IMG/VR virus record: IMGVR_UViG_2778261122_000001
Span: 1-61,573 of that record
DNA from: a virus
Taxonomy: Duplodnaviria; Heunggongvirae; Uroviricota; Caudoviricetes
Length of the DNA: 61,573 nucleotides
Direction: 5' to 3' (one strand)
In this document: positions 1 to 39,604 of the stretch, piece by piece
Numbering within the stretch: position 1 is the stretch's first letter
Layout of the letters: every line of letters begins with the position of its first letter
Made by a program: the position numbers and the translations under genes
Notes under the pieces: model-generated
What the model was told of the DNA's origin: nothing
What the model saw: the letters and a program-made list of their open reading frames with translations, nothing else
The model's database searches: none

Positions 1-1028
1 CAGAAATCACTGAGAACATCCCACGCCTTACGCTGTGTGGTCAGCCAGGCATTACAGGTGATGCGCGGCTCCGTGCCGCCAAAACCATTCGGTACCAACT
101 GGTCGCAGTACTGGCCGATAACGTACAGCGCCCATTTGTCCACATCTGCCGCACCAAGACGTTTCCCCATGCCGTAGCGCGGGTGGGTCAGCATATCCCA
201 CAGACACCAGGCCATGTTGTTGCTGTATGCTGGCTTTAACGTTCCGTCCCAGATACCGCTGTATTGCCGCGTCTGCGGGTTATAGTTCGACGGCACCTGC
301 AGAATACGCCCGCGAAGATGATAATTACGGCTCACCTGCTGGCTGCCGAACTGCTCCGAATCCACCTGTACGCCGACCAGTGCCGTGTTCGGGTAGCACT
401 GTTTCACATCGATGATTTCGGTGTATGACGACCAGAGCGTTTTGTTCTGCAGCTGGTCTGTGGTGCTGTCCGGCGTCATCCTGCGCATCCGGATGTTGAA
501 CGGGCGCGGCGGCAGATTATCCACCACTACCGAGGCCAGATACTGCGAGGTGGTTTTGCCCTTAATGGTGATGTCTTTTTCCGTCACCCAGCCACCGTTA
601 CGCTGTATCTGAACCAGCAGGCGAACTTCCGACGGATTCCTGTCACCCTTTGAGGTGGTTTCCACCAGTGCCTGTACACCGAAGGTAAAGCGCAGACGGT
701 CGATGTTTGCAGACGTAATGGTGCGGGTGATCGGCGTGTCATATTTCACTTCCGTACCCAGCACCGTCTCGGAGCCGGAGGATTCAAACCCCTCCGGCGG
801 TGTCTGCTCCTGCTCACCGGCACGGAACACCACCGTGACACCGGAGATGTTGGTATTCCCCTCAGTGTCCAGCACCGGCGTACTGTTCAGCAGCACGCTT
901 TTTAATCCATCCACCGGACCTTCAATCGGCCCTTCGCTGATGGCATCGATCACACTCAGCAGCTGCGTGGATTTCAGGTTATCCTTCGCTTCGCGCGGGG
1001 TATGCCCCTTACTGCTGCCTTTACCCAT
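1..1028 (-). CDS. J: Tail tip host-specificity protein J, N-terminal part (3' end lies beyond window edge)
   Basis: Minus-strand ATG at 1026..1028 preceded by GGAG; translation MGKGSSKGHTPREAKDNLKS matches remembered lambda J N-terminus; not in ORF track because it runs off the edge. Confidence 0.85.
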   Translation of the reverse strand, partial: MGKGSSKGHTPREAKDNLKSTQLLSVIDAISEGPIEGPVDGLKSVLLNSTPVLDTEGNTNISGVTVVFRAGEQEQTPPEGFESSGSETVLGTEVKYDTPITRTITSANIDRLRFTFGVQALVETTSKGDRNPSEVRLLVQIQRNGGWVTEKDITIKGKTTSQYLASVVVDNLPPRPFNIRMRRMTPDSTTDQLQNKTLWSSYTEIIDVKQCYPNTALVGVQVDSEQFGSQQVSRNYHLRGRILQVPSNYNPQTRQYSGIWDGTLKPAYSNNMAWCLWDMLTHPRYGMGKRLGAADVDKWALYVIGQYCDQLVPNGFGGTEPRITCNAWLTTQRKAWDVLSDF

Positions 1029-1088
1029 TCGTCATGCTCCATAAACGACAAAACCGCCCGGAGGCGGTTTCACATAAAACATTTTGCA

Positions 1089-1760
1089 TCAGCGACCAAT
1101 CACCACAACCTGACCACCGTCCCCTTCGTCTGCCGTGCTGATCTCCTGAAAAACCACCCGCGACCCCACACGCATTTCACCGTACAGAACAGGCAAAACA
1201 TTGCCCTGAGCAACCATGTTATCCAGTGAGGAAAAATAGGTGTTCTGTTTGCCGTTATCCGTTGTCTGTGTACGGGGAGTTCTGGCTTTCGGTGCCAGCA
1301 TCTGCGCCACACCACCGAGCACCATACTGGCACCAAGAGAAAACAGGATGCCGGTCATACCACCGGCCCCAATGGCTGCCCCCCATGCTGCAAGGGTGGC
1401 TCCGGCAGTAAAGAATGATCCGGCAATGGCGGCAGCTCCCAGGACAATCTGGAATACGCCACCTGACTTGGCCCCGGCGACTCTGGGAACAATATGAATC
1501 ACAGCGCCATCAGGCAGAGTCTCATGTAACTGCGCCGTTAATCCGGACGTGCTGACATCCCGTCCGGCAATCCGTACCTGATACCAGCCGTCGCTCAGTT
1601 TCTGACGAAACGCCGGGAGCTGTGTGGCCAGCGCCCGGATAGCTTCAGCCCCCGTTTTCACACGAAGATCGATGCGGCGGCCAAATCGTTGCAAATCCCC
1701 GTAAAGGCAGATGCGTGCCATGCCCGGTGACGCCAGAGGGAGTGTGTGCGTCGCTGCCAT
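1089..1760 (-). CDS. I: Tail assembly protein I
   Basis: 223 aa, same length and near-identical to remembered lambda gpI; position between K and J. Confidence 0.9.
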   Translation of the reverse strand: MAATHTLPLASPGMARICLYGDLQRFGRRIDLRVKTGAEAIRALATQLPAFRQKLSDGWYQVRIAGRDVSTSGLTAQLHETLPDGAVIHIVPRVAGAKSGGVFQIVLGAAAIAGSFFTAGATLAAWGAAIGAGGMTGILFSLGASMVLGGVAQMLAPKARTPRTQTTDNGKQNTYFSSLDNMVAQGNVLPVLYGEMRVGSRVVFQEISTADEGDGGQVVVIGR

Positions 1761-2401
1761 TTGTCGGTATACCTCTCTCGTTTGCTCAGTTGTTCAGGAA
1801 TATGGTGCAGCAGCTCGCCATCACCACAGTAAATGGCGGCATGATTCGGCACCGATGAACCAAAACAGCACAGCAGCACATCGCCCGGTTGTGCTGATGA
1901 CAACGCCACCTGATACAGCCCTGTGGCCTCCAGATTATCCAGATAGAGATTCTGACCTGATTTCCACCAGTCATCATGTCGGTAAAAATCCGGCAAATCG
2001 ATACCTGCAAGATGATAGGCATCGCGGAACAGCGTATAACAGTCTGTCACCCCGTGCTCAAAACGCCGCCCGGTGAGATGCGGCACACAGCGGAACTTAT
2101 GAATCACTCCCCGGCAGACCAGCCACCACGGCAAATCACTCTGCACCTGCAGCCGCCTGTCGGCCTCACTCAGCCAGGGCAGACCACCGGGGTGGCTGTG
2201 GACCAGCGCCACAATCTCACCCTGCATTTCTGCCTGCAGCCAGTCTTCCGGCGACATACGGAAATACGCCTCCGGCTCACCGGAGATATTCACGCAGGGA
2301 AAATATCTTTCCCCCTCCGGCGTTCTCGCCACGAAGCCGCACGACTCCGCTGGCGCGCATCGCCGGGCGTGCGCCAGAATCGCTGATTCTGTCTCTGTCA
2401 T
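1658..2401 (-). CDS. K: Tail assembly protein K (peptidase-like)
   Basis: 247-aa ORF overlapping I as in lambda; HSHP and Cys/His motifs of lambda gpK. Confidence 0.85.
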   Translation of the reverse strand: MTETESAILAHARRCAPAESCGFVARTPEGERYFPCVNISGEPEAYFRMSPEDWLQAEMQGEIVALVHSHPGGLPWLSEADRRLQVQSDLPWWLVCRGVIHKFRCVPHLTGRRFEHGVTDCYTLFRDAYHLAGIDLPDFYRHDDWWKSGQNLYLDNLEATGLYQVALSSAQPGDVLLCCFGSSVPNHAAIYCGDGELLHHIPEQLSKRERYTDKWQRRTHSLWRHRAWHASAFTGICNDLAAASIFV

Positions 2402-2406
2402 GGGAT

Positions 2407-3105
2407 TTACTGCGAAAGTTTGTTAATGGAAAGGAAGCCGCCAAAGTTGCCGACGTTATTGCGGAACTTACAGCCACTCAGGCATTTGCTGCATTTATCC
2501 TTCGTGATATCGGACGTCGGCTGATCATATTCATCCGCGACCGCCGGACCGCTATAACCGCACTCATCGCCGCGATAGGTCCAGGTGCAGGTGTTGGCCA
2601 GCATGATACGTCCCGGAAAAACAGCGCCGTCCGTTTCCGTCGGCGTGGACAGTACAAAAGAGGCACTCACCGCGCTCAGTTCGCTGCACTGCTCAATGCG
2701 CCAACGGCTGATCACCTCCTGCTCCGGATCGGCGTCACTGTTTCCGTTGACGAAGTTCACCGCATCCAGAAAACGGGCGTAAACCTTACGCCGGACCACC
2801 GTTCCGCCGACCAGACTCTGCAGATCTTCCGCCATCCCGGTGACCATACCGTACAGGTTAGAAACCGTCAGCGTGGGGCGCGTACTGGTGCCTTTGCCAT
2901 TCAGTTCAAAACCACTCCCCTGAATGGGATACGGCTGATACTGTCGCCCCTGCCAGGTGACCGGCTCACCTTTTTCGTTCTGCTCATTACAGAAAAAATA
3001 ATGTTCTCCACCGACCTCTGTCAGGTCGATTTCCCAGAGCACCACGCTGGCCGACTGCTCCGCACGGGTGCATTCATTCAGTGTTTCCTGCCGGATATCC
3101 TGCAT
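2407..3105 (-). CDS. L: Minor tail protein L
   Basis: 232 aa, lambda gpL length and sequence; C-terminal Cys cluster. Confidence 0.9.
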   Translation of the reverse strand: MQDIRQETLNECTRAEQSASVVLWEIDLTEVGGEHYFFCNEQNEKGEPVTWQGRQYQPYPIQGSGFELNGKGTSTRPTLTVSNLYGMVTGMAEDLQSLVGGTVVRRKVYARFLDAVNFVNGNSDADPEQEVISRWRIEQCSELSAVSASFVLSTPTETDGAVFPGRIMLANTCTWTYRGDECGYSGPAVADEYDQPTSDITKDKCSKCLSGCKFRNNVGNFGGFLSINKLSQ

Positions 3106-3434
3106 CAGTTCACCACCTGTTCAAACTCTGCGCTGAACTCAACACGCAGCATACTGACCCGCGACGACCATTTTGCGCAGGTCACCTTTATCTGCCGCCA
3201 CTCATAAGGCGGCGTCCACAGGAAGGCTTTCCAGCCCCCGTGCTCAGCCAGAAACGACTCCAGCGCCGTGGCCTCCCAACGGGGAACAGAAAGCGTCACG
3301 CTGTACGTTTTCAGGTCGGCATTCAGCCCGGCAGGCGCTCGCTGGGAATAGCCATCACCAAAGCGCACTTTCCTGACGGAAGGGGCCGAAGCCACATCCA
3401 TACCGGGTTTCACTTTCCAGCGGAAGGTCTTCAT
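3105..3434 (-). CDS. M: Minor tail protein M
   Basis: 109 aa, lambda gpM size and position. Confidence 0.9.
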   Translation of the reverse strand: MKTFRWKVKPGMDVASAPSVRKVRFGDGYSQRAPAGLNADLKTYSVTLSVPRWEATALESFLAEHGGWKAFLWTPPYEWRQIKVTCAKWSSRVSMLRVEFSAEFEQVVN

Positions 3435-5992
3435 CGCCCACCTCCGGAGAACAGACCACCATCACGCATCTGCCCGGTCACAACATCCATTGCCGCCTTA
3501 CGGGCTACGTCATAAACAGCCTTCAGCGCCTGTGGCCCTATCTGACCGTTCGTGCCGTCGTTGTTAATCACCACATGGTTATTCTGCTCAAACGTCCCGG
3601 ACGCCTGCGACCGACTGTCCGCCATGCTGCCCGGTGTACCGACATAACCGCCGGTGGCATAGCCGCGCATCAGCCGGTAAAGATTCCCCACGCCAATCCG
3701 GCTGGTTGCCTCCTTCGTGAAGACAAATTCACCACGGTGAACAATCCCCGCTGGCTCATATTTGCCGCCGGTTCCCGTAAATCCTCCGGTCGCAAAATGG
3801 AGTTTCGCCGCAGCTGCCTGAATGGCTGTACCGCCTGACGCTGATGCGCCACCACTGGCAGCACCGCCAATGGCGCTGCCGATACTCCCGACAATCCCCA
3901 CCATTGCCTGCTTAAGCAGAATTTCTGTCATCATGGACAGCACGGAACGGGTGAAGCTGCGCCAGTTCTGTTCACTGCCGGTCAGCATCGCCGCCATATT
4001 CTGTGCAATACCATCAAAGGTCTGCGTGGCTGCACTTTTAACCTGCGACATACTGTCCGTGGCGCTCTCTTCCCACTCACTCCAGCCTGACCTGAGGCCT
4101 GCCATCCAGCTCCCGCGAAGCAGGTCTTCAGCCGCCCAGGTCTTTTTCTGCTCTGACATGACGTTATTCAGCGCCAGAGGATTATCGCCATACTGTTCCT
4201 TCAGGCGCTGTTCTGTGGCTTCCCGCGCTGCCTGCCGGTCAGTCAGCCCCCGGCTTTTCGCATCAATGGCGGCCCGTTTTGCCCGTTGCTGCTGTGCGAA
4301 TTTATCCGCCTGCTGCGCCAGCGCATTCAGGCGCTCCTGATACGTGACCTTATCGCCAAGTGCAGCCAGCTGGCGTTTGTACTCCAGCGTCTCATCTTTA
4401 TGCGCCAGCAGGGATTTCTCCTGTGCGGACAGCTGGCGACGTTGTGCCGCCTCCTCCAGTACCGCGAACTGACTCTCCGCCTTCCACAAATCCCGGCGCT
4501 GCTGGCTGATTTTCTCATTCGCTCCGGCATGCTTCTCCAGCGTCCGGAGTTCTGCCTGAAGCGTCAGCAGGGCAGCATGAGCACTGTCTTCCTGACGATC
4601 GCCCGCAGACACCTTCACGCCGGACTGTTTCGGCTTTTTCAGCGTCGCTTCATAGTCCTTTTTCGCCGCCGCCATCAGCGTGTTGTAATCTGCCTGCAGG
4701 ATTTTCCCGTCTTTCAGTGCCTTATTCAGTTCTTCCTGACGGGCGGTATATTTCTCCAGCGGCGTCTGCAGGCGTTCGTAAGCCTTCTGCGCCTCTTCGG
4801 TATATTTCAGCCGTGACGCTTCGGTATCGCTCTGCTGCTGCGCATTTTTGTCCTGTTGAGTCTGCTGCTCAGCCTTCTTTCTCGCGGCTTCAAGCGCAAG
4901 ACGGGCCTTTTCACGATCATCCCAGTAACGCGCCCGCGCTTCATCGTTAACAAAATAATCATCCTTGCGCAGACTCCAGATGTCGTCCGCTTTCTTAAAC
5001 GCAGCCTCTGCCTTAATCAGCATCTCCTGCGTGGTATCAGGACGACCAATATCCAGCACCGCATCCCACATGGATTTGAATGCCCGCGCTGTCCTGTCTG
5101 CCCAGGTCTCCAGCGTACCCATGTTCTCTTTCAGGCGGCGGGTCTGGTCATCAAACCCTTTCGTCGCGGCCTCGTTCGCCGCCTGCAATGCCCCGGCTTC
5201 ATCGCCGGAACGCTGCAACTGAGCAACATACGCAATCTGCTCCGCCGTCACGTTATGGAACTGACGTGCCATCGCTGTCAGTCCCGACGTCGGGTCTGTG
5301 GTCAGCTTCCCGAAGGCTTCAGCGACCTTGTCCACCTCCACGCCGGATGCAGAGGAGAAACGCGCCACACTCTGGCTGATCGCCTCAAACTGCTCACCAC
5401 CACGCACACCTGCATTCACCAGCGCCGTCAGTGACTCGCTGGTCTGGTTAAACGTCAGCCCTGCCGCCTGCCCGGCTCTGGACAGGACCAGCATACGATC
5501 TGCCGTCAGACCCGACTGATTGCCGGAAAGGACCAGCGTTTTGTTGAAATCGGACAGGGTTGAGTTGCCCTGATACCAGGCATACGCCAGCGCACCGGTC
5601 GCCACCGCCAGCGAGGTGGCCCCGACCATCGGCAGGGTGATCGCACCGGCAAGCCCTCTGAACATGGGGATCATCCCGCCGAAGGAGTCCTTCACCTGAC
5701 CACCCTGTTGCAGCAGGATCAGCCACGGACTTTGCCCGCCTGCAAGCTGCGTGGCCACGTCGGTGAACTGCGCAGGCAGCATACGCATGGCGGCTTTATA
5801 CTGCCCGACGGAAATCCCCGCTTTCTGTGCAGCCAGTGCCTGTCGGCTCAGCGACTGTTCAACGACTGCCGCTGTTTTTTTCGCATCACTTTCCGTACCG
5901 GAAAAATGACGCCTGACTCTGGCCATCTGCTCGTCAAATCTGGCCGCATCCAGACTTAAATCAACGACCAGATCGCCTACCGGTTCAGCCAT
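3431..5992 (-). CDS. H: Tail tape measure protein H
   Basis: 853 aa, same length as lambda gpH; long coiled-coil middle, Gly-rich C-terminus. Confidence 0.9.
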   Translation of the reverse strand: MAEPVGDLVVDLSLDAARFDEQMARVRRHFSGTESDAKKTAAVVEQSLSRQALAAQKAGISVGQYKAAMRMLPAQFTDVATQLAGGQSPWLILLQQGGQVKDSFGGMIPMFRGLAGAITLPMVGATSLAVATGALAYAWYQGNSTLSDFNKTLVLSGNQSGLTADRMLVLSRAGQAAGLTFNQTSESLTALVNAGVRGGEQFEAISQSVARFSSASGVEVDKVAEAFGKLTTDPTSGLTAMARQFHNVTAEQIAYVAQLQRSGDEAGALQAANEAATKGFDDQTRRLKENMGTLETWADRTARAFKSMWDAVLDIGRPDTTQEMLIKAEAAFKKADDIWSLRKDDYFVNDEARARYWDDREKARLALEAARKKAEQQTQQDKNAQQQSDTEASRLKYTEEAQKAYERLQTPLEKYTARQEELNKALKDGKILQADYNTLMAAAKKDYEATLKKPKQSGVKVSAGDRQEDSAHAALLTLQAELRTLEKHAGANEKISQQRRDLWKAESQFAVLEEAAQRRQLSAQEKSLLAHKDETLEYKRQLAALGDKVTYQERLNALAQQADKFAQQQRAKRAAIDAKSRGLTDRQAAREATEQRLKEQYGDNPLALNNVMSEQKKTWAAEDLLRGSWMAGLRSGWSEWEESATDSMSQVKSAATQTFDGIAQNMAAMLTGSEQNWRSFTRSVLSMMTEILLKQAMVGIVGSIGSAIGGAASGGASASGGTAIQAAAAKLHFATGGFTGTGGKYEPAGIVHRGEFVFTKEATSRIGVGNLYRLMRGYATGGYVGTPGSMADSRSQASGTFEQNNHVVINNDGTNGQIGPQALKAVYDVARKAAMDVVTGQMRDGGLFSGGGR

Positions 5993-6419
5993 ACCGGACT
6001 CCTCCTGCGATCCCTTCTGATACTGTCATCAGCATTACGTCATCCTCCGTCATGTCCGCCACATCCGGGGAAGCGGGGATAACTTCATTCCCGTCCGGGC
6101 CAAAACGAACGCCTCCGGCAAGCCCTGCCGCTTTCTGCATCAGCACATCATCTTCAGGCTCTTCGTCAGCCTCGCGCCGGTTCAGCAGACTGAAATCCAG
6201 CGGATGCATATCCGGATCGCTGAAAAACAGGCTGAGCACGGTGTACGTCAGCCCGGAAAAGTGCATATCCAGCAGAACATCATGAAAATAATGGGTACTG
6301 TAAAAGCGGTGCCAGTCGGCATACTCCGTGGATGACATCCCGGCAAGCATGGCGCGCCAGTCGGGTCGCCCCATCTCACGCGCCAGTTTCAGGGCAAAAC
6401 TCAGCTCACCGTCGAACAC
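5985..6419 (-). CDS. T: Tail assembly chaperone T segment, expressed as G-T fusion by -1 frameshift
   Basis: ORF opens at the slippery site in the -1 frame relative to G; overlaps H start. Confidence 0.8.
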   Translation of the reverse strand: MFDGELSFALKLAREMGRPDWRAMLAGMSSTEYADWHRFYSTHYFHDVLLDMHFSGLTYTVLSLFFSDPDMHPLDFSLLNRREADEEPEDDVLMQKAAGLAGGVRFGPDGNEVIPASPDVADMTEDDVMLMTVSEGIAGGVRYG

Positions 6420-6823
6420 TTTCCCGCAGAAACAGGCTCTGCGGGCCCGGCGTCCTCTGCCTGTTCAGGTGCATCATTCACAACAAACTCAGACATACCG
6501 GACAGACGCATTACCACATTTTCAGCCTGAGCAATTGCCTCTGTGGGCCAGGTGGTAAGCACTTCCTGCTCAATCTGTTTAACGGCTTCATTCATGGACG
6601 GCATCTTTGTCTTCTGCGGATGGCTATGCCACAGGGACATCGCCACCAGAAAAGCACCGGTTCTGACGAGATCTTCCACGCTCACCTGTCGATTGAGACT
6701 GGATCCCGCCTGTTCTGCCTGTCGTTTCAGCAGGGCGAGATGCTCAATACGCTGCAGGGCTGACAGTTCAGAAAGCGTGACGCTCACACCGTTATATTCA
6801 AATGATTCGGTTTTCAGGAACAT
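6401..6823 (-). CDS. G: Tail assembly chaperone G
   Basis: 140 aa, lambda gpG length; slippery site near 3' end. Confidence 0.9.
   Translation of the reverse strand: MFLKTESFEYNGVSVTLSELSALQRIEHLALLKRQAEQAGSSLNRQVSVEDLVRTGAFLVAMSLWHSHPQKTKMPSMNEAVKQIEQEVLTTWPTEAIAQAENVVMRLSGMSEFVVNDAPEQAEDAGPAEPVSAGKCSTVS
6419..6425 (-). other. Programmed -1 ribosomal frameshift slippery heptamer GGGAAAG (G to G-T)
   Basis: Plus strand reads ctttccc, i.e. G_GGA_AAG on the coding strand six codons before the G stop; T frame begins exactly here. Confidence 0.75.
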
Positions 6824-6838
6824 CGCTGACTCTCCGGA

Positions 6839-7579
6839 TTAACTGTCGGTGACGGTGATTTCTGCAACCGCAGCAAGTTCACCATTACCGGATACGACCG
6901 GAATGTTGACCTTGCCTGCAGCAACACCTTTCACGGTGATGGTCATACCACTGACCGACACGGTGGCTTTTGTTTTATCCGCAGACACCGCACGGAAGCT
7001 CTTGTCGGTTGCGCCTTCCGGCTGGAATGCCACGGTCAGCGTGGTGCTCTGCCCTTTCACCACCGAGGTGCTGGCAGGCGTCACGGTCATGCCGGTTGCC
7101 GCTGTTACCGTGCTGCGATCTTCTGCCATCGACGGACGTCCCACGTTGGTGACTTTCACCGTGCGGGTGATCACTTCCTTCGCCGTCACCGCCTTACCGA
7201 TACTGCTGACCCAGCCGCGGAACACATCGACCGTGCCGTTCGGGAAGCGGATTTTATAGGCACGGGTATCACCTTCATTAAACCACGCCAGCAGCGCCTG
7301 CTGCCCCTGCTCTCCGGGCATCCACGCCAGCGTGAAGCTGGTATCTCCGGCGGATTTCTGCCCCTGTCCGGTCGAGGTCCAGTCCGCATCTTCATCATCG
7401 AGATAACTGTCGTCATAGGACTCAGCGGTCAGTTCGCCGGGCGTCAGGTCTTTAACTTTTGCCAGACGCGACCAGTCATTGTCTGAAAGCGGGTTTGCAT
7501 AAGGGTCGCCGCTCCCGTTATAAACCCACAGGGTGGTCCCGGCCCCTTTCACCGGTGCCAGAGGATTTGGTGTTGGCAT
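6839..7579 (-). CDS. V: Major tail tube protein V
   Basis: Start trimmed to MPTPNP; matches remembered lambda gpV including C-terminal Ig-like domain. Confidence 0.9.
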
Positions 7580-7586
7580 ATCGTCC

Positions 7587-7982
7587 TCACATTTCATAGG
7601 TAATGACATAAGTCAGATCGGCTGAACTCCACAGGCCCGCATCATCGTCGCGCCGGTAGTCATAGCCACTGGCCACCATACTGGTGATCAAATCTGACAG
7701 TGCCGGGATATCGCTCATTACCGGATAAATCCGGGACTCCATCCACGAATCCAGCTCTGAATCCGGCACCTGAGCAGGCAGGAAAACTTCAATATGCAGC
7801 TCCGCCTGCCAGGTATCGCTGTCCAGCTCTTCGCCCGTGTATTCAGCGCCGGTGAGATAAACGGCAATTGCCGGAAAATCCGCCTCATCAAAAACAGCGG
7901 GGCGACCATCAAAAAGCGTCGCCCCGGTGTCATGCTTCTCCAGTGCATCCAGTACGGCTGCTCGGAGTTCAGTATGTTTCAT
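7587..7982 (-). CDS. U: Tail terminator protein U
   Basis: 131 aa, lambda gpU size and position. Confidence 0.9.
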
Positions 7983-8557
7983 CGCTTTATTACCATCCTC
8001 AGTTGATGCTGCAGCGCATAGCCCAGCTCTTTCGGAAGACGCTCACGCCGTATCCGCTCAATATTCTGTTTAAACGCCGTGGTCAGCGGCACCGCCATCG
8101 GAATTTTCACCACATCAATGGGGTAACGGTTTTTCCCGGCCACACGCTGCATGACATGCCAGCGGCCATTTTTCAGTTGCTGAATAAACGCGCCGGGAAT
8201 ACGACGGTTTCCCACCACAAGCACACTGCCGCCACCTTTCAGGGCTGAACGCTGCCCCTTTTTACGACGCCTGCGTCGGGACAGGACAACCCGCGCGTTA
8301 CCCAGCCTGATTACGGGCAAATCCCCCCGGTTAACCTTGATTCTGGCCTGCGGATTTTTGACCGTGGCCCTTTTCAGCCTGGCCCTTTCCTTTACCAGTT
8401 TCCGGCGTACCTTTGTCTCACGGGCAACCTGTGACGCCGACTGCGATATCGCGGATGAAGCAACGCGGTTAATGGCCATTGCTGCGGCACCAGGCACCGC
8501 CGTTTTGCTGATACGGCTGAGGTTTTCAACGGCCTGCTCAAGACCTTTTATGGCCAT
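7979..8557 (-). CDS. Z: Tail completion protein Z
   Basis: 192 aa, lambda gpZ size and position. Confidence 0.9.
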   Translation of the reverse strand: MAIKGLEQAVENLSRISKTAVPGAAAMAINRVASSAISQSASQVARETKVRRKLVKERARLKRATVKNPQARIKVNRGDLPVIRLGNARVVLSRRRRRKKGQRSALKGGGSVLVVGNRRIPGAFIQQLKNGRWHVMQRVAGKNRYPIDVVKIPMAVPLTTAFKQNIERIRRERLPKELGYALQHQLRMVIKR

Positions 8558-8632
8558 ACCTCCTCCTTTCAGCGACGACGGTTAACGGCAGGCGGTACGC
8601 CCCGTCCAAGCCAGAGATGACAGCTTCCGCCA

Positions 8633-8923
8633 TCATCCGGCGAAACCCGGTCTATCCAGATAGTTTTCCTCACCGATGGTCAGCGTGTCTCCACGCCGCA
8701 GCTGCCGCACATCATCAGTCCGGACAAACAGGGACGGGCTGGAGCCTTCAACGCGCACACCCTGTCCGGCATAGCTGATATTTTCAGGGTCATCAAAAAC
8801 ACCACGTATCACAGCACCGGACTGCTCACCGGATGTCATGGTGGCTGACGTTCCCATATACCCGCGTATCGTTTCATCAGCGCGGGCAATGGCAGCATCG
8901 AACAGGTTATCGAAATCAGCCAC
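8633..8923 (-). CDS. FII: Head-tail joining protein FII, apparently truncated by a frameshift (possible pseudogene)
   Basis: N-terminal 90 aa match lambda FII; ORF stops at 96 aa while another frame continues with WIDRVSPDDGGSCHLWLGRGVPPAVNRRR to a stop at 8569..8571 next to the Z start. Confidence 0.7.
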   Translation of the reverse strand: MADFDNLFDAAIARADETIRGYMGTSATMTSGEQSGAVIRGVFDDPENISYAGQGVRVEGSSPSLFVRTDDVRQLRRGDTLTIGEENYLDRPGFAG

Positions 8924-8934
8924 AGCGCCTCCCG

Positions 8935-9333
8935 TTATTGCATTCTGGCCAGGCCACGCTCTGTCATTTCGGCTGCCACACCGGCAGAGACACGAAACGC
9001 CGTTCCCGGCAGCACAAATGCCACAGGTTTATCCCTCGTGGCGTGAAGTGCATCAGTATGCAGCGTCACCAGTGCCACGACCGTGACCAGTTCAGCCGTA
9101 TCCTGAATCACGGTATCCGGCTGCGCTGATACCACCTCATTTTCATGCCCGGTCAGCACATTTTCCGGGCTGAGAGGGGTGTCCTGACCGGCAGTGTCAT
9201 CCGTGTCATCAAGCTCCTCTTCCAGCTCTGCCACACGGAGCGCCAGTTCTTCTTTCGTCCCCGTCAGGCTGACATCACGGTTCAGTTGCTCACCCAGCGA
9301 GCGGAGACGGGCAATCAGTTCATCTTTCGTCAT
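8935..9333 (-). CDS. FI: DNA packaging/head assembly protein FI
   Basis: Start trimmed to MTKDELIARLRSLGEQ, matching remembered lambda FI. Confidence 0.85.
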   Translation of the reverse strand: MTKDELIARLRSLGEQLNRDVSLTGTKEELALRVAELEEELDDTDDTAGQDTPLSPENVLTGHENEVVSAQPDTVIQDTAELVTVVALVTLHTDALHATRDKPVAFVLPGTAFRVSAGVAAEMTERGLARMQ

Positions 9334-9374
9334 GGACTCCTCCACAGAGAGAAAATGGCCCCGAAGGGCCATGA

Positions 9375-10400
9375 TTACGCCAGTTGTACGGACACGAATT
9401 CATCAGGGTCAGCCAGCAGCATCAGCGGTGCTGACTGAATCATGGTGAACTCACGCGCCGGATCGCCGGTAGTCACCCAGTTTTTCGGGTAACGGGCAGA
9501 GGCGTTAATGCCTTCGCGCTGTGCGTCCGCATCCTGAATACAGCCATAGGTACGCAGACCGCGTGCCTGAGTGTTCCCCAGCACCATCGTGTTGTCCGGC
9601 AGGAAGTTCTTTTTGACGCCGTTTTCCACGTACTGTCCGGAATACACGACGATGGCCACATCGCCATACATTCCCTTATAAGACACCGCTTTGCCCAGGT
9701 CTTTTACCGCTGTCTCCAGCTCGGAATGAGAGCCGCGACGGGTATCCAGCTTATCCTTGACGGCCTTGAAGGAACGGAACAGCGCCCATCCTTTCGGATC
9801 AAACACGATGATATTCACCACGCCGCTGGCGTTCAGCGCGTAGGCTTCGATATCGTCGGTCGGGTCATACGTGGACTTGTCGCGCTTGCTCCACTCCGTG
9901 CCACCGGACTGTGTGATGTTGTTTGCCGCACTGCGCCCCATATCCACCTCAACCGGATCAAAGGCTTCACCGGTCATGGTGTATTTGCCCTTAAGCACGG
10001 CAGAAACTGCCTGCATCTCTTCGACCTGGGCAATGGCCAGCTCTTCGTCACGCATGTTCTGCATGATGATGCGACGGCGGCGGTAAGCCGGGTCCGCCAG
10101 ATTCTGCGGATCTTCATCCGGCAGGCGACGCAGGGTCATCTGCGGATTCACCTCATGCTTCGGCTTGACATATCCCGGCGTAAATTCAGAGGTGGAGCCG
10201 CCACGGGAACGGATAACCTCACCGGAAACAATCGGCGAAACGTACAGCGCCATGTTTACCAGTCCCGGAATTTGTGAGAGATAGACTTTCTCCGTGGTGA
10301 AGGGATAGCTCTCACGGAAAAAGAGACGCAGAAACAGCGGATCAAACTTAAATTTCTGCTCATTTGCCGCCAGCAGCTGGGCGGTTGTGTACATCGACAT
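9375..10400 (-). CDS. E: Major capsid protein E
   Basis: Start trimmed to MSMYTTAQLLAANEQ, lambda gpE N-terminus; 341 aa. Confidence 0.9.
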   Translation of the reverse strand: MSMYTTAQLLAANEQKFKFDPLFLRLFFRESYPFTTEKVYLSQIPGLVNMALYVSPIVSGEVIRSRGGSTSEFTPGYVKPKHEVNPQMTLRRLPDEDPQNLADPAYRRRRIIMQNMRDEELAIAQVEEMQAVSAVLKGKYTMTGEAFDPVEVDMGRSAANNITQSGGTEWSKRDKSTYDPTDDIEAYALNASGVVNIIVFDPKGWALFRSFKAVKDKLDTRRGSHSELETAVKDLGKAVSYKGMYGDVAIVVYSGQYVENGVKKNFLPDNTMVLGNTQARGLRTYGCIQDADAQREGINASARYPKNWVTTGDPAREFTMIQSAPLMLLADPDEFVSVQLA

Positions 10401-10455
10401 AAAAAAATCCCGTAAAAAAAGCCGCACAGGCGGCCTTTAGTGATGAAGGGTAAAG

Positions 10456-10788
10456 TTAAACGATGCTGATTGCCGTTCCGGCAAACGCGGTCCGTTTTTT
10501 CGTCTCGTCGCTGGCAGCCTCCGGCCAGAGCACATCCTCATAACGGAACGTGCCGGACTTGTAGAACGTCAGCGTGGTGCTGGTCTGGTCAGCAGCAACC
10601 GCAAGAATGCCAACGGCAGCACCGTCGGTGGTGCCATCCCACGCAACCAGCTTACGGGTGGAGGTGTCCAGCATCAGCGGAGTCATTGCAGGCGCTTTCG
10701 CACTCAATCCGCCGGGCGCGGTTGCGGTATGAGCCGGGTCACTGTTGCCCAGCGGCTGGTAATGGGTAAAGGTTTCTTTGCTCGTCAT
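10456..10788 (-). CDS. D: Head decoration protein D
   Basis: Start trimmed to [12 protein letters not shown], lambda gpD; 110 aa. Confidence 0.9.
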
Positions 10789-10797
10789 AAACATCCC

Positions 10798-12097
10798 TTA
10801 CACTGGTGTGTTCAGCAAATCGTTAACGGCATCAGATGCCGGGTTACCTGCAGCCAGTGGTGCCGGTGCACCCTGCATCAGACGATCCAGCGCAGTGTCA
10901 CTGCGCGCCTGTGCACTCTGTGGTGCTGCGGCCAGAATGCGGCGGGCCGTTTCCACGGTCATTCCGGGGGTTTCTGCCAGAACGCGCGCCTGTTCTTCGC
11001 GTCCGTGAGCCTCCTCACAGTTGAGGATCCCCATAATGCGGCTGTTTTCTGCCGCAACCGCTGCGGTGATCTGCGCGTTCACGTCCGGCTGCGCCGCGCT
11101 GGCGTTTTCGCCCTCCGTCGCTTGCACCACGTCAGTAACGTCAGCCTGCGAAGCGGTGGCTGAAACAGTTGTTGATTGAGTCTCTTTGGTCATTCGCCCT
11201 CCTGAGAGACGGGATTTACGTGCATCCAGTGCATCACGCATGACGGTGATCGCATCGGTGCTGTTAACAAGTTCATCAGCCAGTCCGGCATCAATGGCCT
11301 CCTGACCGCTGTACACTGCAGCCTCGGTATCCAGCACAGCCTGCACGGACAGGCCGGTATATGCCGACACCTTCTGCGCAAACATCTGGCGGGTTGCATC
11401 CATCCGGGACTGCAGTGTCTCCCGGACGTCATCCGGAAGATGGCTGTAGGGGTTGCCATCCACCTTATGGCTGCCGCTGTAAATCAGCGTGATTTCCACG
11501 CCCTGTTTCTCCAGCGCAGCACCGTAATTACTGTGAGCCATCATGACGCCGATGGAGCCTGTCCGGGCGGTCTGCGTGACCAGACGCCGGGAGGCGGCGC
11601 TGGCAAGCAGCTGACCTGCACTGCAGTTCATGTCGTTGGCCAGCGCCCATACAGGTTTTATGTCACGCACACGGGCGATGATGTCAGCGCAGTCAAATGC
11701 CCCTGCCACCATTCCACCGGGCGTGTCCATATCGAGCAGAATGCCGTCCACCATCGGGTCACTGGCAGCCTGTTGCAGACGGGCGATAATGCCGTTGTAA
11801 CCGGTCATCCCCGAATAAGGCTGCAGCGCCCGCGTCCGGCTGACCAGCGTACCGGACACCGGCAGCACGGCGATGCCGTTCATGACCTGATAACTGCGGG
11901 CCTGTCGTGGTCCGTCACCATCACCGGCTAACGCCAGCGTCGCGGGTGCCTCCTGGGCAGTCAGGCTGTCGCCGGACACCGCATCCGTCAGGCGGCTGAT
12001 CCCTGGCTGGCCTGCAAGCGCACAAAAGAAAACCCGCGCATAGGCGGGTTCAAGCATCAGCGGCTCATTAAAGGCCATGCTGGCAATATGCGGGAGA

Positions 12098-12117
<20 letters not shown>
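10798..12117 (-). CDS. C: Capsid assembly protease C with in-frame nested scaffold Nu3
   Basis: GTG start after GAGGAGGAG; translation TAELRNLPHIASMAFNEP matches lambda gpC. Confidence 0.85.
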
Positions 12118-15798
<3,681 letters not shown>

Positions 15799-15824
<26 letters not shown>

Positions 15825-16344
15825 TCAGCAACCCCGGTATCAGTTCATCCAGCGCGGCTGCTTTGTTCATGGCTTTGATGATATCCCGTTTCAGGAAATC
15901 AACATGTCGGTTTTCCAGTTCCGGAAAACGCCGCTGCACCGACAGGGGGATCCCGTCGAGAATACTGGCAATTTCACCTGCGATCCGCGACAGCACGAAA
16001 GTACAGAATGCGGTTTCCACCACTTCAGCGGAGTCTCTGGCATTTTTCAGCTCCTGTGCGTCGGCCTGCGCACGCGTAAGTCGATGGCGTTCGTACTCAA
16101 TAGTCCCTGGCTGGAGATCTGTCTCGCTGGCCTGTCGCAGTTCTTCAACCTCCCGGCGCAGCTTTTCGTTCTCAATTTCAGCATCCCTTTCGGCATACCA
16201 TTTTATGACGTCGGCAGAGTCATAAAGCACCTCATTACCCTTCCCACCGCCTCGCAGAACGGGCATTCCCTGCTCCTGCCAGTTCTGAATAGTACGGATA
16301 CTCGCGCCGAAAATGTCAGCCAGCTGCTTTTTGTTGACTTCCAT
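15799..16344 (-). CDS. Nu1: Terminase small subunit Nu1
   Basis: 181 aa; MEVNKKQLADIFGASIRTIQNWQEQG HTH matches lambda Nu1. Confidence 0.9.
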
Positions 16345-16521
16345 TGTTCATTCCACGGACAAAAACAGAGAAAGGAAACGACAGAGGCCAAAAAGCCCGT
16401 TTTCAGCACCTGTCGTTTCCTTTCTTTTCAGGGAGTGTTTTAAATAAAAACATTAAGTTACGGCGAAGAAGAACGGAAACGCCTTAAACCGGAAAATTTT
16501 CATAAATAGCGAAAACCCGCG

Positions 16522-16533
16522 AGGTCGCCGCCC
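16522..16533. other. cosN cohesive-end site (cosB between it and Nu1, cosQ on the other side)
   Basis: Plus strand aggtcgccgccc is the reverse complement of the lambda 12-nt cohesive end GGGCGGCGACCT; flanks match lambda left and right ends. Confidence 0.8.
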
Positions 16534-22429: not shown

Positions 22430-23692
22430 CTATATATCCCAGATCTCGCCATTATAAAGATGCTCGCTAATCTTTGGTGGATTTTTCTTAACATTAGGGT
22501 GACTCGCCAAAATGAGTCTTAATGTCCTGATAGCAACATAGGCCTTTATAACAATATCCCTTTGTTGTTTGAAATACTCCTGATTGAAGTTATTGTTATC
22601 GATGGCATGTGCTGGTTTTTGTCTAAGTTGCCTTACCTTTCTAAAGGTGTCAATCATATCTTTAACTGGCGCAGGATCTGTTGGCTGGAAATATTTATCA
22701 AGCCATGACTCAAGTATTTGTATAGTGCCTTTAGGCCTTACGACTATTTTCCCATCCTCGCGCTCCTCTTCAATTTCAAGCTCCACATCATCCTCGAAGA
22801 ATTTCTTATTAAGATTGTCGGACATCATTTTATCCAACAAAAGCATGAAATTATTAAATTCTGAACGAGTTGGTCGCAAAAGAAACCCGAACTCTTTAGG
22901 CATGTCATCGCTGTAATCTTTTCTAAAAAGTTCAGCCTTTCCTATTAACACGCTCATTTTATTAATTATTTTAAGTTCTTCCGTAAATGCACTAAAAATA
23001 GAAATTTTAGTCCCCCAAGCTCCTAATATGCTTGCAGCATAGTAATCGGGATGCAACTTTATATCTCCTTTTACTTCTTTCGCTGCCCAAACATTTTGGT
23101 GTTCAGGACTGAGATCACTCAGGTATCTCAAGAAAACTGCAACATATCTATTTAGACTGTCATCATAAGCAAACCCAAATGTTTTAAGCAATATTTGATC
23201 GTGTTCAGGAATATTGTCTGATTCATAATACTCATCCGTAATAGATATTTCCCCATGTATAAAGTCTGTAAAGTATGAATAACGTGGATCATTTCGGTAG
23301 TATTCCAAAACAGACAAATCAAAAGTTCTATAGTCAAATTGTCCCGCACCTCTTGCTAGCTCCATTTCATATGGTGACTTACTATAAGCAGAAAGCTTAC
23401 TAGATTTGGCTAGCATATTTTCATGGGGATATAAGCATATGTAATCTAAACTCTCTGAATCATCGAAATTCTTAAGGATATTATCCTTGGGGATTTTTGA
23501 AAACGCTTTAATATGAGGGTTATCCCCAAAACAAGCAGTTAAAATATCATCTTCGATTCCTTTTCTAACCAAAACTTTGAAAGTTTCGCTTTTGATATCG
23601 AAAAGACCATCTAACTTATAAATAGGCAATCCATTAAAATCACCTGATGAAAAATATTGTTCCTCGACTATTTCATATATTTCTTTAATCAT
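22430..23692 (-). CDS. Hypothetical 420-aa protein in AT-rich insertion downstream of Q
   Basis: Long uninterrupted ORF with AT-rich codon usage unlike flanking genes; no motif recognised. Confidence 0.6.
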   Translation of the reverse strand: MIKEIYEIVEEQYFSSGDFNGLPIYKLDGLFDIKSETFKVLVRKGIEDDILTACFGDNPHIKAFSKIPKDNILKNFDDSESLDYICLYPHENMLAKSSKLSAYSKSPYEMELARGAGQFDYRTFDLSVLEYYRNDPRYSYFTDFIHGEISITDEYYESDNIPEHDQILLKTFGFAYDDSLNRYVAVFLRYLSDLSPEHQNVWAAKEVKGDIKLHPDYYAASILGAWGTKISIFSAFTEELKIINKMSVLIGKAELFRKDYSDDMPKEFGFLLRPTRSEFNNFMLLLDKMMSDNLNKKFFEDDVELEIEEEREDGKIVVRPKGTIQILESWLDKYFQPTDPAPVKDMIDTFRKVRQLRQKPAHAIDNNNFNQEYFKQQRDIVIKAYVAIRTLRLILASHPNVKKNPPKISEHLYNGEIWDI

Positions 23693-32636: not shown

Positions 32637-32941
32637 TGACCACTTTTACCGACAAAGAACTGATTAAAGAAATTAAAGAGCGTATCAGCAGCCTTGACGT
32701 GCGAGACGATATTGAGCGCCGTGCTTATGAAATCGCACTCCTATCTCTGGAAGTAGAACCAGATGAACGCGAAGCTTATGAATTATTCATGGAAAAGCGT
32801 TTTGGTGACTTAGTAGATCGTCGGAGAGCAAAAAACGGCGATAACGAATACATGGCATGGGATATGACTCTCGGTTGGATCGTCTGGCAGCAACGAGCTG
32901 GTATCCATTTCTCAACAATGTCACAGCAAGAGGTGAAATAA
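32636..32941 (+). CDS. Hypothetical early protein
   Basis: 101-aa ORF, ATGA overlap with neighbours. Confidence 0.45.
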   Translation: MTTFTDKELIKEIKERISSLDVRDDIERRAYEIALLSLEVEPDEREAYELFMEKRFGDLVDRRRAKNGDNEYMAWDMTLGWIVWQQRAGIHFSTMSQQEVK

Positions 32942-33291
32942 TGGAGCCATACAGCCTCACACTCGATGAGGCCTGTCATTTTCTCAAGATATCCAGACCG
33001 ACTGCCATTAACTGGATACGCACAGGGCGTCTTCAGGCAACACGCAAAGATCCCACTAAGAATAAATCTCCTTACCTCACAACACGACAAGCCTGCATTG
33101 CGGCTCTTCAGTCTCCGCTGCATACTGTCCAGGTGAGCGCGGGTGATGGCATAACAGAGGAAAGAAAATGTCACTCTTCCGCAGAGGTGAAATATGGTAC
33201 GCCAGTTTCACATTGCCGAACGGTAAAAGATTTAAACAGTCTCTTGGAACAAAGGACAAAAGGCAGGCGACAGAACTCCATGACAAGCTAA
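32941..33291 (+). CDS. xis: Excisionase-like DNA-binding protein
   Basis: [36 protein letters not shown] pattern directly upstream of int; 3' extent uncertain. Confidence 0.45.
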
Positions 33292-34331
33292 AGGCTGAAG
33301 CATGGCGGGTCAGCAAACTTGGTGAAATACCTGATATAACGTTCGAGGAAGCGTGTGTCAGGTGGCTTGAAGAGAAAGCACATAAAAAATCACTGGACGA
33401 TGACAAAAGCCGGATCGGATTCTGGCTTCAACATTTCGCAGGAATGCAACTAAGAGACATTACTGAATCAAAAATTTATTCAGCAATGCAGAAAATGACG
33501 AACCGGCGTCATGAGGAAAACTGGAAACTCAGGGCAGAAGCATGCAGAAAAAAAGGGAAACCTGTTCCAGAATACACGCCAAAACCAGCGTCCGTTGCAA
33601 CGAAGGCTACGCATCTTTCATTTATAAAGGCCCTACTAAGAGCCGCAGAGCGTGAATGGAAAATGCTGGATAAGGCACCAATTATTAAAGTGCCTCAACC
33701 AAAGAATAAACGGATCCGCTGGCTGGAGCCCCATGAAGCACAAAGGCTGATTGATGAATGTCCGGAGCCATTAAAGTCTGTTGTTGAATTTGCACTGGCA
33801 ACAGGCTTAAGACGCTCGAACATCATCAACCTTGAATGGCAACAAATAGATATGCAGCGCCGGGTGGCATGGATAAACCCGGAAGAGAGTAAATCAAACC
33901 GCGCAATTGGCGTTGCGCTGAATGATACTGCATGTCGCGTATTGAAAAAACAAATCGGGAATCATCACCGTTGGGTATTTGTGTACAAGGAAAGCTGTAC
34001 CAAACCAGACGGAACGAAAGCGCCAACAGTAAGGAAGATGCGGTATGACGCAAACACAGCCTGGAAAGCGGCGCTGAGACGGGCTGGTATTGATGATTTC
34101 AGATTTCACGACTTGAGACACACCTGGGCAAGTTGGCTGGTTCAAGCCGGAGTCCCGTTGTCAGTGTTACAGGAAATGGGAGGCTGGGAGTCTATCGAAA
34201 TGGTTCGTCGATATGCTCACCTTGCACCTAATCACCTTACCGAACACGCACAGCAAATAGACTCGATCCTGAACCCATCGGTCCCAAATTTGTCCCAGTC
34301 AAAAAATAAGGAAGGTACTAATGATGTGTAA
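33168..34331 (+). CDS. int: Tyrosine integrase, P22 Int type (thrW-targeting)
   Basis: [33 protein letters not shown] matches remembered P22 Int; C-terminal R...HxxR...Y catalytic pattern. Confidence 0.9.
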
Positions 34332-34345
34332 CTTATTGATTTAAA

Positions 34346-34392
34346 TGGTGCCGATAATAGGAGTCGAACCTACGACCTTCGCATTACGAATC
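34346..34392 (-). other. Partial tRNA-Thr(CGU) 3' end, 47 nt: attachment-site core between the two prophages
   Basis: Reverse complement GATTCGTAATGCGAAGGTCGTAGGTTCGACTCCTATTATCGGCACCA equals the 3' portion of E. coli thrW from the anticodon loop to CCA; 5' half absent. Confidence 0.8.
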
Positions 34393-34727
34393 TGTAGCAC
34401 CAATCATAACTATCTGTTTTAGCAAGCATTAACCGCATTCACTAACCTATAGTTGATGGCACAAACAGAAAGTTGATGCATGATGTTGCCATGTGTATGT
34501 CACAAATACGGCACAACGATCTTCAAACATGTAGCCACACATCCACAGAAGAGCACAAAGCCTTGCAATCCAGTGCAAAGCTTTGTGTGTTTAAATTTTG
34601 TCTAAGCATTCTAGTGAAAACATAGTAAAATCAGTAACGGCTGGAAATCATTCAATACTCGCACTATCGAAAGTTAACCAGCCAGCCGCAGTATCCTATC
34701 ATGACAAGTTACTGCGGCTTTTTATAT

Positions 34728-35024
34728 TTAACGGATCAACAGCCAGACCAGCAGACACACCACCACTGGCACAGCAAAATCCAACAAACTTCCCACATCC
34801 CACACGCGTGGATCAAAACCGCCCCACCACGGCATATTCATACGCTTGCCATGCCCGAACATTTCTATCCAGCGATATTCTGCCTGGGTGTGTTCTCGGG
34901 ATATAAAAAACACACACCCTATTACAGCCCCAGTTATCGGATCATTAAATAAACTCAAAAACAGAAACTGTAGCGATAATGATATTAGCACATGAATGAA
35001 ATGAGATATGTCCATACTTACCAA
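34728..35024 (-). CDS. Hypothetical small membrane protein downstream of tailspike
   Basis: 98-aa ORF with about three hydrophobic segments. Confidence 0.35.
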
Positions 35025-36676
35025 CTCAAAAGAATATTTACATCACCTACGCTAATAGGATTTGGAGTGACATTTTGAAATGTTACCCTGACGATATTAT
35101 CGGAAACAGCAATAGCATCTGAAATTATACCTATTGGGAGATCATTCAACACTGTCATTTGTAGAGGAACTTCATTAGATATGATATATCCGGTCAATGT
35201 TCTTTGCATTGAGAACCTGCCACTTGCTGAAATCGTGCCAACATTCAACGTTGATTTTACTTTCTTTCCTGAATATGTAACACCATTCAAATCTATATGT
35301 GAGTTATTTATTAATGTCAACGCAGAATATCCTGAAAAATCACTATTAGCCCCGGCCTGCCTTACTACAGAGAATTTATCAGCTCGTATTGCAAAGTCAC
35401 CAGTTGCTTCCGATGCATTAATGTTATTGGTAACAACAACACCTCCATCAACACAGTTAATAGCATATGTTGCATTTCCTTTTATCGTTATGTTTCTTAA
35501 ACTTAAATAAGATGCAAACTGGCATGTGGCAAAAGCAATTGCTCCATCTGATAGATACCCATCTGAAAATTCAACAGACGAAGAATACCTTGATCCTATA
35601 CACGATTGAGTTCTCGGTTTAAAAATAGATCCGCCTTTAATATAACAATCCGCCGCATGCTCAACCTTAAGAGAGTCTTCCCCTGAATTGTAAGAAGTGA
35701 ATTCTGTGCCCCTCACGCTTGCACTGTACACACATTCAAGGGAAATATTAGCATTTGATATATGAACCCCATTAACCCCAAACTGAGATCCAGAGCCAGA
35801 AACAAGAACTCCACAAACAGAGCCTCCATTTACAATCAAATTGTTTGCATCCCAAACTACGCAACTACCACATTGTGAATCAGGGTAGTATCCACCTCCG
35901 ATAATGAGTCCGTAATCACCATCTGTTTCAACAGCAACATTTTTTATGCTGTATATATTTGATCTAAATTGTATTCCTTTTGTTGTTTTTATTATGGAAT
36001 TTATTGGTTTTGCCACAACCCCGTTAACTGGGCCTGAAATTATACCATTGTGACTCATATCCAATGTTAAAACATTTCCATCCTTGGAAATTATCATCGC
36101 TCCACATGAAATGTCTCTCCTGCCAGAAAGTATACAATATTTACCAACATGAAAATTATCTGCATTCTGAACAGAAACTTTAAATATACCAGTCAACACA
36201 TCATAAGAAACATCATATACATTAACAGGACTATAATCCACACCCAATATATTCAGAGGAATATTATCAAACTCATCATAATGTGAATAACCATCAGGAA
36301 TGTGAATATACTGCCCGTATTCTATCTGTGATCTAAGCTGATCGGGATCGTACTTCAGCACATTAGGAAAATAGAACTGCTGTGATCCATATGCATCGTA
36401 CACAGCCATAGAATGCCCTTGTACAGTAACGAACTTAGCAATCTGTCCGTTATATACTGGATACCCTGCGGCATTGATGACGATTGGCTGTGCAACAGGA
36501 ACGTGAGAACCATCTTCGTTTTCTACATAAACCTGAATCTGGTTTTCTGGATTTACCGGGTCAGTATCAATTTTACCGATATAAATTTTGCCATTGGCTA
36601 CGGCTTTAAAAGAACGCGCCATAGTGAAGAGTTGCGATGGCATCGATACGATCACATTGGCTGTAATGTCTGTCAT
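35018..36676 (-). CDS. Tailspike protein with P22 gp9-type N-terminal head-binding domain
   Basis: First ~110 aa ([43 protein letters not shown]) match remembered P22 gp9; remainder divergent. Confidence 0.85.
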
Positions 36677-36813
36677 TTAATTTGCTCCAGATACAAGGAA
36701 TCGCCGCAGCGTGGCTACGGTTGGTATTTGTTTGGTTTTTGAACTACGAAAATTTCGTAGTGCTATCCATCAAGGCCATCGCCGCTGAGTTGCTGCGGTG
36801 AATTTTGGGCATA

Positions 36814-36836
36814 AAAAAACCCAGCCGAAGCTGGGT
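36814..36836 (-). terminator. Intrinsic terminator after ant
   Basis: On minus strand CCCAGC-ttcg-GCTGGG followed by TTTTTTT. Confidence 0.55.
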
Positions 36837-36876
36837 CGTTGCGTTGGTTATTGACCTACACTTTTCGTGCAGGTAG

Positions 36877-37755: not shown

Positions 37756-37817
37756 GTCAATATTTCCTAATCCGATTTGTTGATACCGAAGCCCTGACTG
37801 TTACCGCAGTTGGGGCT

Positions 37818-38042
37818 TCAACTTTTCACTTCTTTAAAGTGCCTACCTTCTACAGTTGCTCTGAGATAAAAATTCTTATCTTTACCGTTTAGTGCTTCCC
37901 AAGCATCAACAATGCACTTATTACAGATGTGGACTTCTCGATAACCAATAGCTTTCCTGTCAATATTAGTGAACATAACAGTTTCTTTATCTGTCAATGT
38001 GGATGCATGACAGAAGTCGCAATCTATATAAGATACCTTCAT
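37818..38042 (-). CDS. Hypothetical Cys-rich protein inserted between arc and ant
   Basis: 74 aa with CDFC...CNKC spacing. Confidence 0.35.
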   Translation of the reverse strand: MKVSYIDCDFCHASTLTDKETVMFTNIDRKAIGYREVHICNKCIVDAWEALNGKDKNFYLRATVEGRHFKEVKS

Positions 38043-38197: not shown

Positions 38198-38287
38198 ATT
38201 CACCTCACAATATAGGTCCACCGTGGACCTATTGAGAATATAGTAGAGTGCTTCTATCATGTCAATACACTAACTTGGGGTGATGGC

Positions 38288-38536: not shown

Positions 38537-38578
38537 GTCAATGTTTGTTCGTTGATATAAAATAACAAGGTATACATT

Positions 38579-39582: not shown

Positions 39583-39604
39583 AATATCAACTAAGGAGGT
39601 TGGC

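Follow-up and report, generated by a model that had tools for sequence, protein, structure and literature searches.

A probable G/GT programmed -1 ribosomal frameshift site in a lambda-type prophage and its conservation among relatives

Close to the 3' end of the tail assembly chaperone gene G of a lambda-type siphovirus prophage lies the heptamer GGGAAAG, and a second reading frame, T, continues past it. The question raised by this locus is whether the heptamer is a programmed frameshift signal that would join T to G in part of the translation products, or whether G and T are two independent genes, as they are listed in many public records. The locus is part of a stretch of 61,573 nucleotides of tailed-phage DNA (IMG/VR record IMGVR_UViG_2778261122_000001), hereafter the window, to which all coordinates refer unless lambda is named. 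Judging from its sequence and from that of its relatives, we are highly confident that the site is the G/GT programmed -1 ribosomal frameshift signal of the lambda-type prophage. Such a signal is already known and ordinary biology, the textbook case of phage lambda, as a preliminary description of the locus had itself stated.

Position and frame geometry of the slip site

Gene G (6823..6401, minus strand; stop TGA 6403..6401) encodes a tail assembly chaperone of 140 aa, recognised by PF06894 (E 2.5e-55) and by the equivalog TIGR01674 (201.7 bits, cut-off 74.45). The slippery heptamer GGGAAAG occupies 6425..6419 on the minus strand, covers the Gly134-Lys135 codons of G and is identical in lambda. 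The minus-strand letters at 6440..6401 read GAG CCT GTT TCT GCG GGA AAG TGT TCG ACG GTG AGC TGA. Because the heptamer begins at the third base of a codon (offset 398 in the G ORF; 398 mod 3 is computed as 2), the zero frame at this place is GCG GGA AAG and the heptamer stands in the slippery register X XXY YYZ; following a -1 slip the codons would be GGG AAA, which is the register of tandem slippage. The slip codon AAG is codon 135 of G and the TGA stop is codon 141, and the heptamer therefore lies six codons ahead of the G stop. The preliminary description had reported a canonical heptamer at exactly this distance and had named a heptamer outside the zero frame of G as the result that would speak against it; our recount bears out the distance and finds the heptamer in frame as G GGA AAG. 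The span given there, 6401-6425, runs exactly from the G stop through the first heptamer base, on the minus strand, which had been left unstated.

From the slip point, the -1 frame (GGG AAA GTG ...) comprises 146 codons (6425..5985, minus strand; stop TGA 5987..5985), ends 8 nt inside the start of gene H and is matched by PF06223 and the equivalog TIGR01715 (189.1 bits, cut-off 77.35). The conventional T ORF spans 6419..5985 on the same strand. Its GTG (6419..6417), of which the first G is shared with the heptamer, is the first start-type codon in the T frame, and to this extent the earlier claim that the T frame opens exactly at the heptamer is correct. The open stretch of the frame as such, however, begins at 6464, 13 codons ahead of the heptamer, and is bounded on its upstream side by a TGA at 6467..6465 (minus strand). 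The slip site is so near the 3' end of G that the predicted G-T fusion of 279 aa keeps 135 of the 140 G residues, with the junction reading ...PVSAGK-VFDGELSF.... The two NCBIfam equivalogs, which are specific to lambda, match not only G and T but also this predicted fusion. Within the PHROG profile phrog_32165 (290 positions), G matches positions 1-142 and T matches positions 140-285; as the two cover successive parts of it, the profile was evidently built from deposited fusion proteins. No solved structures related by sequence to G-T were found.

The G/T pair is placed between the major tail gene V and the tape measure gene H, all on the minus strand and in the order U-V-G-T-H-M-L-K-I-J. Gene V (7579..6842, minus strand) encodes the major tail tube protein, of 246 aa by homology (PF16461, Big_2), which is 95.9% identical to lambda V over residues 1-246; the mechanical ORF reaches 7609. 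Gene H (5992..3431, minus strand) encodes the tape measure protein of 853 aa (PF06791, PF09718), 96.6% identical to lambda H. Its start codon ATG (5992..5990) and the stop of T overlap within ATGGCTGA, and the 3' end of T contains the Shine-Dalgarno sequence of H, AGGAGG (6006..6001). The same part of T encodes a repeated protein motif: T proteins of the lambda type, in the window (5988..6110, minus strand) and in Stx phages, have two C-terminal copies of G(L/I)xGGVR(F/Y)G about 35 residues apart, and those of N15, phi80 and the HK97-like phages end after a single copy. The last copy in the window T overlaps the AGGAGG of gene H.

The motif GGGAAAG alone is insignificant, with five bare occurrences in the window vs 7.6 expected, and it is the context of the heptamer that is significant. 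We defined this architecture by 100 or more open codons on the upstream side, a zero-frame stop no further than 30 codons away and a -1 frame that stays open for at least 100 codons. Only 2 of the 345 XXX(AAA|TTT)Z heptamers on both strands of the window have it, one being the G/T site, and triplet-shuffled windows contain a mean of 0.04 sites with a G/T-like architecture. The other match, TTTAAAC at 33231..33237 (plus strand), falls in the overlap of an excisionase-type HTH_17 ORF (32857..33291) and the integrase ORF. Since the integrase ORF has its own start codon, we consider this match a coincidental one in an ordinary xis/int overlap and reject it as a second site of the G/GT type.

Likeness to lambda and conservation among relatives

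The window is collinear with the left arm of lambda (window 1..16533 with lambda 16532..1) at 96.8% identity. An alignment with lambda G-T had been proposed earlier as a check on the signal: it gives 100% identity for T, only 86% for the G protein and nucleotide identity over about 100 nt at the junction, a stretch in which the window, lambda, 434 and PhiR11_1 do not differ. The window and lambda have the same heptamer in the same register and at the same distance from the stop, and they agree in these flanks, in the T sequence, in the 279-aa fusion, in the overlap of T stop and H start and in the order V-G-T-H. They differ in G, in the 5' half of which a mosaic patch lowers the nucleotide identity to 77% (lambda 9801-9900), and in the state of the element, lambda being a free phage whereas the element in the window is a prophage that adjoins a P22-like prophage. 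The mosaic pattern (window 6404..6823, minus strand, against lambda 9711..10133) includes a further patch in G, with 86% identity at lambda 10001-10100, and identity climbs to 99-100% from the slip site through T. Two other patches diverge as well: within H, identity is 81% at lambda 11101-11200, and at the H/M boundary it is 72% (lambda 13001-13100).

In lambda, where the frameshift is established by experiment, approximately 96% of the ribosomes keep the zero frame and approximately 4% slip back by one base, the heptamer encoding Gly-Lys in both frames (PMC3296357). The same tRNA-Lys(UUU) decodes AAG and AAA, and when it is under-thiolated, lambda frameshifting rises and phage yield falls (PMC3296357). 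The heptamer G_GGA_AAG is among the highly shift-prone ones in E. coli (PMC5009743). Lambda gpG and gpGT are produced at a ratio of about 30:1, experimentally shown to be essential, and both products are needed (PMC5009743, citing Levin 1993, Xu 2004/2013/2014); both bind the tape measure via the G part, the T part binds and recruits gpV, and neither is found in virions (PMC5009743).

With the site and its context of about 100 nt identical to lambda, we infer the same mechanism and a similar efficiency for the prophage in the window, by analogy; the efficiency could differ from that of lambda if distant context matters. Ribosomes translating G (6823..6401) would reach G GGA AAG at 6425..6419, where most of them (about 96% in lambda) would remain in frame, stop five codons on and release gpG, the chaperone of 140 aa. 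On a few per cent of the ribosomes, the P-site tRNA-Gly and the A-site tRNA-Lys(mnm5s2UUU) would re-pair one base back on GGG AAA, leaving Gly-Lys unchanged, and the slipped ribosomes would translate the -1 frame into the 279-aa gpG-T fusion (...SAGK-VFDGELSF...). Many gpG and few gpGT would subsequently coat the tape-measure protein gpH through their common G part, the T part would recruit the tube protein gpV, and both chaperones would leave the finished tail. The frameshift signal would apparently consist of the heptamer alone. The low-frequency G-T fusion that the preliminary description had expected thus appears well supported by the analogy with lambda, as every sequence-level feature required of the lambda G/GT site is present and nothing in the letters speaks against it.

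In a panel of 14 phages, whose G proteins are 32-100% identical to that of the window, all 14 have an A-site A AAG near the end of G, at 6 or 2 codons from the stop, and behind it a -1 ORF of 115-154 codons. A wider scan, in which each species was represented by one genome, brought in about 60 further loci, spread over about 40 genera of enterobacteria, and the slip site is found at the homologous position in all of them, 1, 2 or 6 codons before the G stop. Throughout the panel and the genomic loci an A-site A AAG or A AAA is retained, followed by a -1 ORF of 112-154 codons. Since this A-site codon is the conserved core while the P-site codons vary, the alignments suggest that slippage of the A-site tRNA-Lys may dominate in the G/T family. 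The rest of the heptamer varies among the relatives.

Within the panel, G GGA AAG is present in phages of the lambda type, in Stx2a and in PhiR12_5, A AAA AAG in an Stx1 phage, and G GAA AAG in N15, phi80, mEp237, mEp460, Fels-1 and Gifsy-1. The genomic loci contribute further variants: Pantoea has G GTA AAG, Ewingella and Kluyvera have G GCA AAA, Providencia has G GGA AAA and Morganella has A GAA AAG. We note at eight of these loci (at about 1198..1207 in locus coordinates) that the P-site codon re-pairs poorly after a -1 shift, the heptamers being G GTA AAG, G GCA AAA and A GAA AAG, and the same holds for the common G GAA AAG. N15, phi80, the HK97-like mEp460, Fels-1, Gifsy-1 and Stx phages share with the window homologous G and T, a homologous slip position and the same gene order. 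This group differs from the window in its heptamer, which is G GAA AAG or A AAA AAG where the window has G GGA AAG, in a slip site that is 2 codons from the G stop in the HK97-like phages instead of 6, and in T proteins whose GGVR(F/Y)G motif is not repeated at the C-terminus as it is in lambda-type T.

Among close copies of the locus the heptamer does not vary at all. In the IMG/VR set, defined by a T at least 99% identical to that of the window, GGGAAAG is invariant in 79 of 79 copies, and the G proteins of the same set fall into 36 variants that differ at 47 of the 140 positions, among them residues 133, 136 and 138, which flank the slip codons. The scan of viral contigs returned only T copies of 99-100% identity, so these numbers inform about invariance and not about diversity.

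A T sequence 100% identical to that of lambda was furthermore encountered on low-coverage contigs, several of about 48.4 kb, in assemblies of unrelated taxa (eighteen loci). These taxa include Neobacillus, Oceanobacillus, Kitasatospora, Shewanella, Pseudomonas, Chromatium and Enterococcus, and the pattern looks like contamination of the assemblies with lambda DNA.

Prophage integrity and alternative explanations

The first alternative accepts the signal and concerns its present use: the heptamer may be an intact relic in a defective prophage, where the G/GT frameshift has no current function. Such a reading derives from gene FII (8572..8923, minus strand), the head-tail joining gene, into which a single nucleotide is inserted at about 8661 (ACT[A]TCT). 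The insertion splits FII into two frames, with residues 1-88 and 85-117, and the ORF stops at 96 aa vs 117. It lies outside any homopolymer and is absent in lambda and in the closest E. coli relative, where FII is annotated as intact. FII is needed for head-tail joining in lambda, and virion production by the prophage is therefore not assured. If the insertion is real, the prophage could build tails and not join them to heads; if the prophage no longer makes virions, its slip signal is intact but free of selection here.

The remainder of the late region argues against such decay. The lambda late genes from nu1 through the N-terminal part of J, 21 in number, are all found in their proper order, FII is the sole one below full length, and the other 20 have 86-100% protein identity to lambda, with G, T and H intact. 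The earlier statement that the tail module is organised for assembly is in agreement with this for Z, U, V, G, T, H, M, L, K and I, which are full length, and for J, which is intact to the window edge, whereas it does not extend to the nearby FII. The insertion is either a real inactivating mutation or a sequence or assembly error. Tail assembly would moreover proceed without FII, and the G/GT mechanism itself would not be affected. We accordingly regard a relic without function as an improbable interpretation, and favour an intact signal that the prophage would use in tail assembly.

The lambda-type prophage is followed in the window by a second one. The integrase of the lambda-like prophage (33168..34331, plus strand) and a P22-like tailspike (35018..36676, minus strand; PF09008) of the neighbour have their ends about 690 bp apart, and the two prophages hence abut within 33168..36676. 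This suggests tandem integration at one att site. No tRNA genes were found anywhere in the window. None of the complete E. coli genomes covers at least 80% of the prophage junction, and a few have this integrase and a tailspike at most about 4 kb apart. The second element (35000..61573) is a P22-like podovirus prophage of the Kapi1/CUS-3/Sf101 type that carries P22-type virion genes and is about 96% identical, over 52-62% of the query, to Kapi1, EC.P3 and CUS-3. It contains an ORF for a Bro-N antirepressor (36877..37755, minus strand), adjoined by a sar RNA (37757..37823, plus strand; Rfam match of 72.7 bits). Patches of its lysis, Q and nin region (55.6-60.2 kb) are 87-99% identical to lambda. 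In the part of the first prophage that is not lambda-like, an N6/N4 DNA methylase (PF01555; 20079..21131, minus strand) and a 420-aa ORF without Pfam match (22430..23692, minus strand) are both located between the lysis and the replication genes.

A second alternative concerns the extent of the signal, namely whether an RNA structure behind the heptamer contributes to it. A stem is predicted at 6341..6411 (minus strand), beginning 7 nt after the heptamer, in which 6411..6404 would pair with 6348..6341 and enclose further hairpins. The 99 nt after the heptamer have a minimum free energy of -40.6 kcal/mol (z = -2.16 against dinucleotide shuffles, equalled by 9 of 200 shuffles), and the first 49 nt alone have no excess stability (z = +1.6). 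In a 12-sequence panel the outer helix is paired in 88% of the cells, with compensatory changes at two positions, and 11 of the 12 sequences are more stable than synonymous recodings of the same peptide, the excess being mild (z -1.0 to -2.8). On 50 diverse sequences this support is gone: 68% of the cells are paired, two robust covariation measures are reached by 206 and 133 of 500 shuffles, pairs changed on both sides number 14 vs a shuffle mean of 13.2, and the RNAalifold consensus of -1.44 kcal/mol amounts to essentially no structure. A downstream stimulatory stem is therefore not supported as a feature of the family. Protein coding confounds any sign of conservation after the heptamer and would explain it, because the region encodes T's most conserved motif and, in its opening 18 nt, the end of G as well.

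It could still be that in the sub-lineage of lambda, N15 and phi80, to which the prophage in the window belongs, a lineage-specific long-range stem (6411..6404 with 6348..6341) tunes the efficiency of frameshifting and hence the gpG:gpGT ratio, but we consider this unlikely. A search of the accessible literature found no reference to a stimulatory stem for lambda G/GT. Levin and co-workers reportedly observed in 1993 that downstream sequence influences efficiency, and are said to have identified no clear structure. On the upstream side, no Shine-Dalgarno-like stimulator was seen when 6426..6470 was read by eye. A well-known system with such elements is the tau/gamma frameshift of E. coli dnaX, likewise of the -1 type (reviewed in PMC5009743), at the heptamer A AAA AAG, where about 50% of the ribosomes shift, an upstream Shine-Dalgarno-like element and a downstream stem-loop are needed, and the product is truncated. 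By contrast, the G/GT site of the window has the heptamer G GGA AAG, would by analogy with lambda shift at a low level, has no stimulator found family-wide and would lead to an extended product. A signal formed by the heptamer alone thus remains our preferred reading for the family.

A third alternative dispenses with frameshifting altogether: T would be an independent gene, translated from its own GTG at 6419..6417. This codon stands in the T frame directly after the heptamer in both the window and lambda, and many records, among them RefSeq lambda and PGAP-annotated E. coli genomes, list G and T as separate CDSs with T starting at that GTG. The wider family does not conform to this arrangement. 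Of 50 family members, only 2 begin T with a start-type codon, the other 48 having GCC, GTC, GTA, GCT, GCA, GTT or ATA in its place, and in 21 of the 50 the first start-type codon of the T frame occurs 22-23 codons in, past the most conserved motif of T, LAREFGRPDWRxM. By our reading of the window sequence, moreover, the only purine-rich stretch upstream of the GTG (GGGA) ends 2 nt before it, which is too near for a Shine-Dalgarno sequence. The record of N15 gene 15 is 5'-incomplete and has an explicit slippery site, and reviews treat T only as the C-terminal domain of gpGT (PMC5009743). With start codons so rare at the head of T and no suitably spaced Shine-Dalgarno sequence before the GTG, we reject a free-standing T gene as very improbable; T would therefore not be made on its own, and the ribosomal frameshift is retained as its route of expression.

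The weakest alternative, a fusion by transcriptional slippage, in which RNA polymerase drops or adds a base in the A run and the ribosome does not shift, has in its favour a short homopolymer at the site (AAA in the window, AAAA in the G GAA AAG variants, AAAAAA in the Stx1 phage) and the fact that this route to fusions is known from other systems (PMC5009743), but can be practically dismissed, as three A's are far below the run lengths generally known for productive polymerase slippage, the codon register (zero-frame A AAG or A AAA) and not the run length is conserved, and the frequency of frameshifting in lambda tracks the thiolation of tRNA-Lys(UUU), a ribosomal signature (PMC3296357).

Annotation of G and T

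A joined GT CDS is annotated at the same site in the records of phages 434 and phi80, and a "slippery sequence for -1 translational frameshift" in those of N15 and phi80. Of 5,426 complete E. coli genomes, 3,712 contain the G/T locus, and those that do carry a median of two copies; being so widespread, and usually present in more than one copy, it is among the commonest recoding sites in the species. Our analysis adds no new biology on the G/GT site, and its main value lies in annotation. Instead of independent genes G and T, we recommend annotating G together with a joined G-T fusion, join(6823..6419, 6419..5988) on the minus strand.
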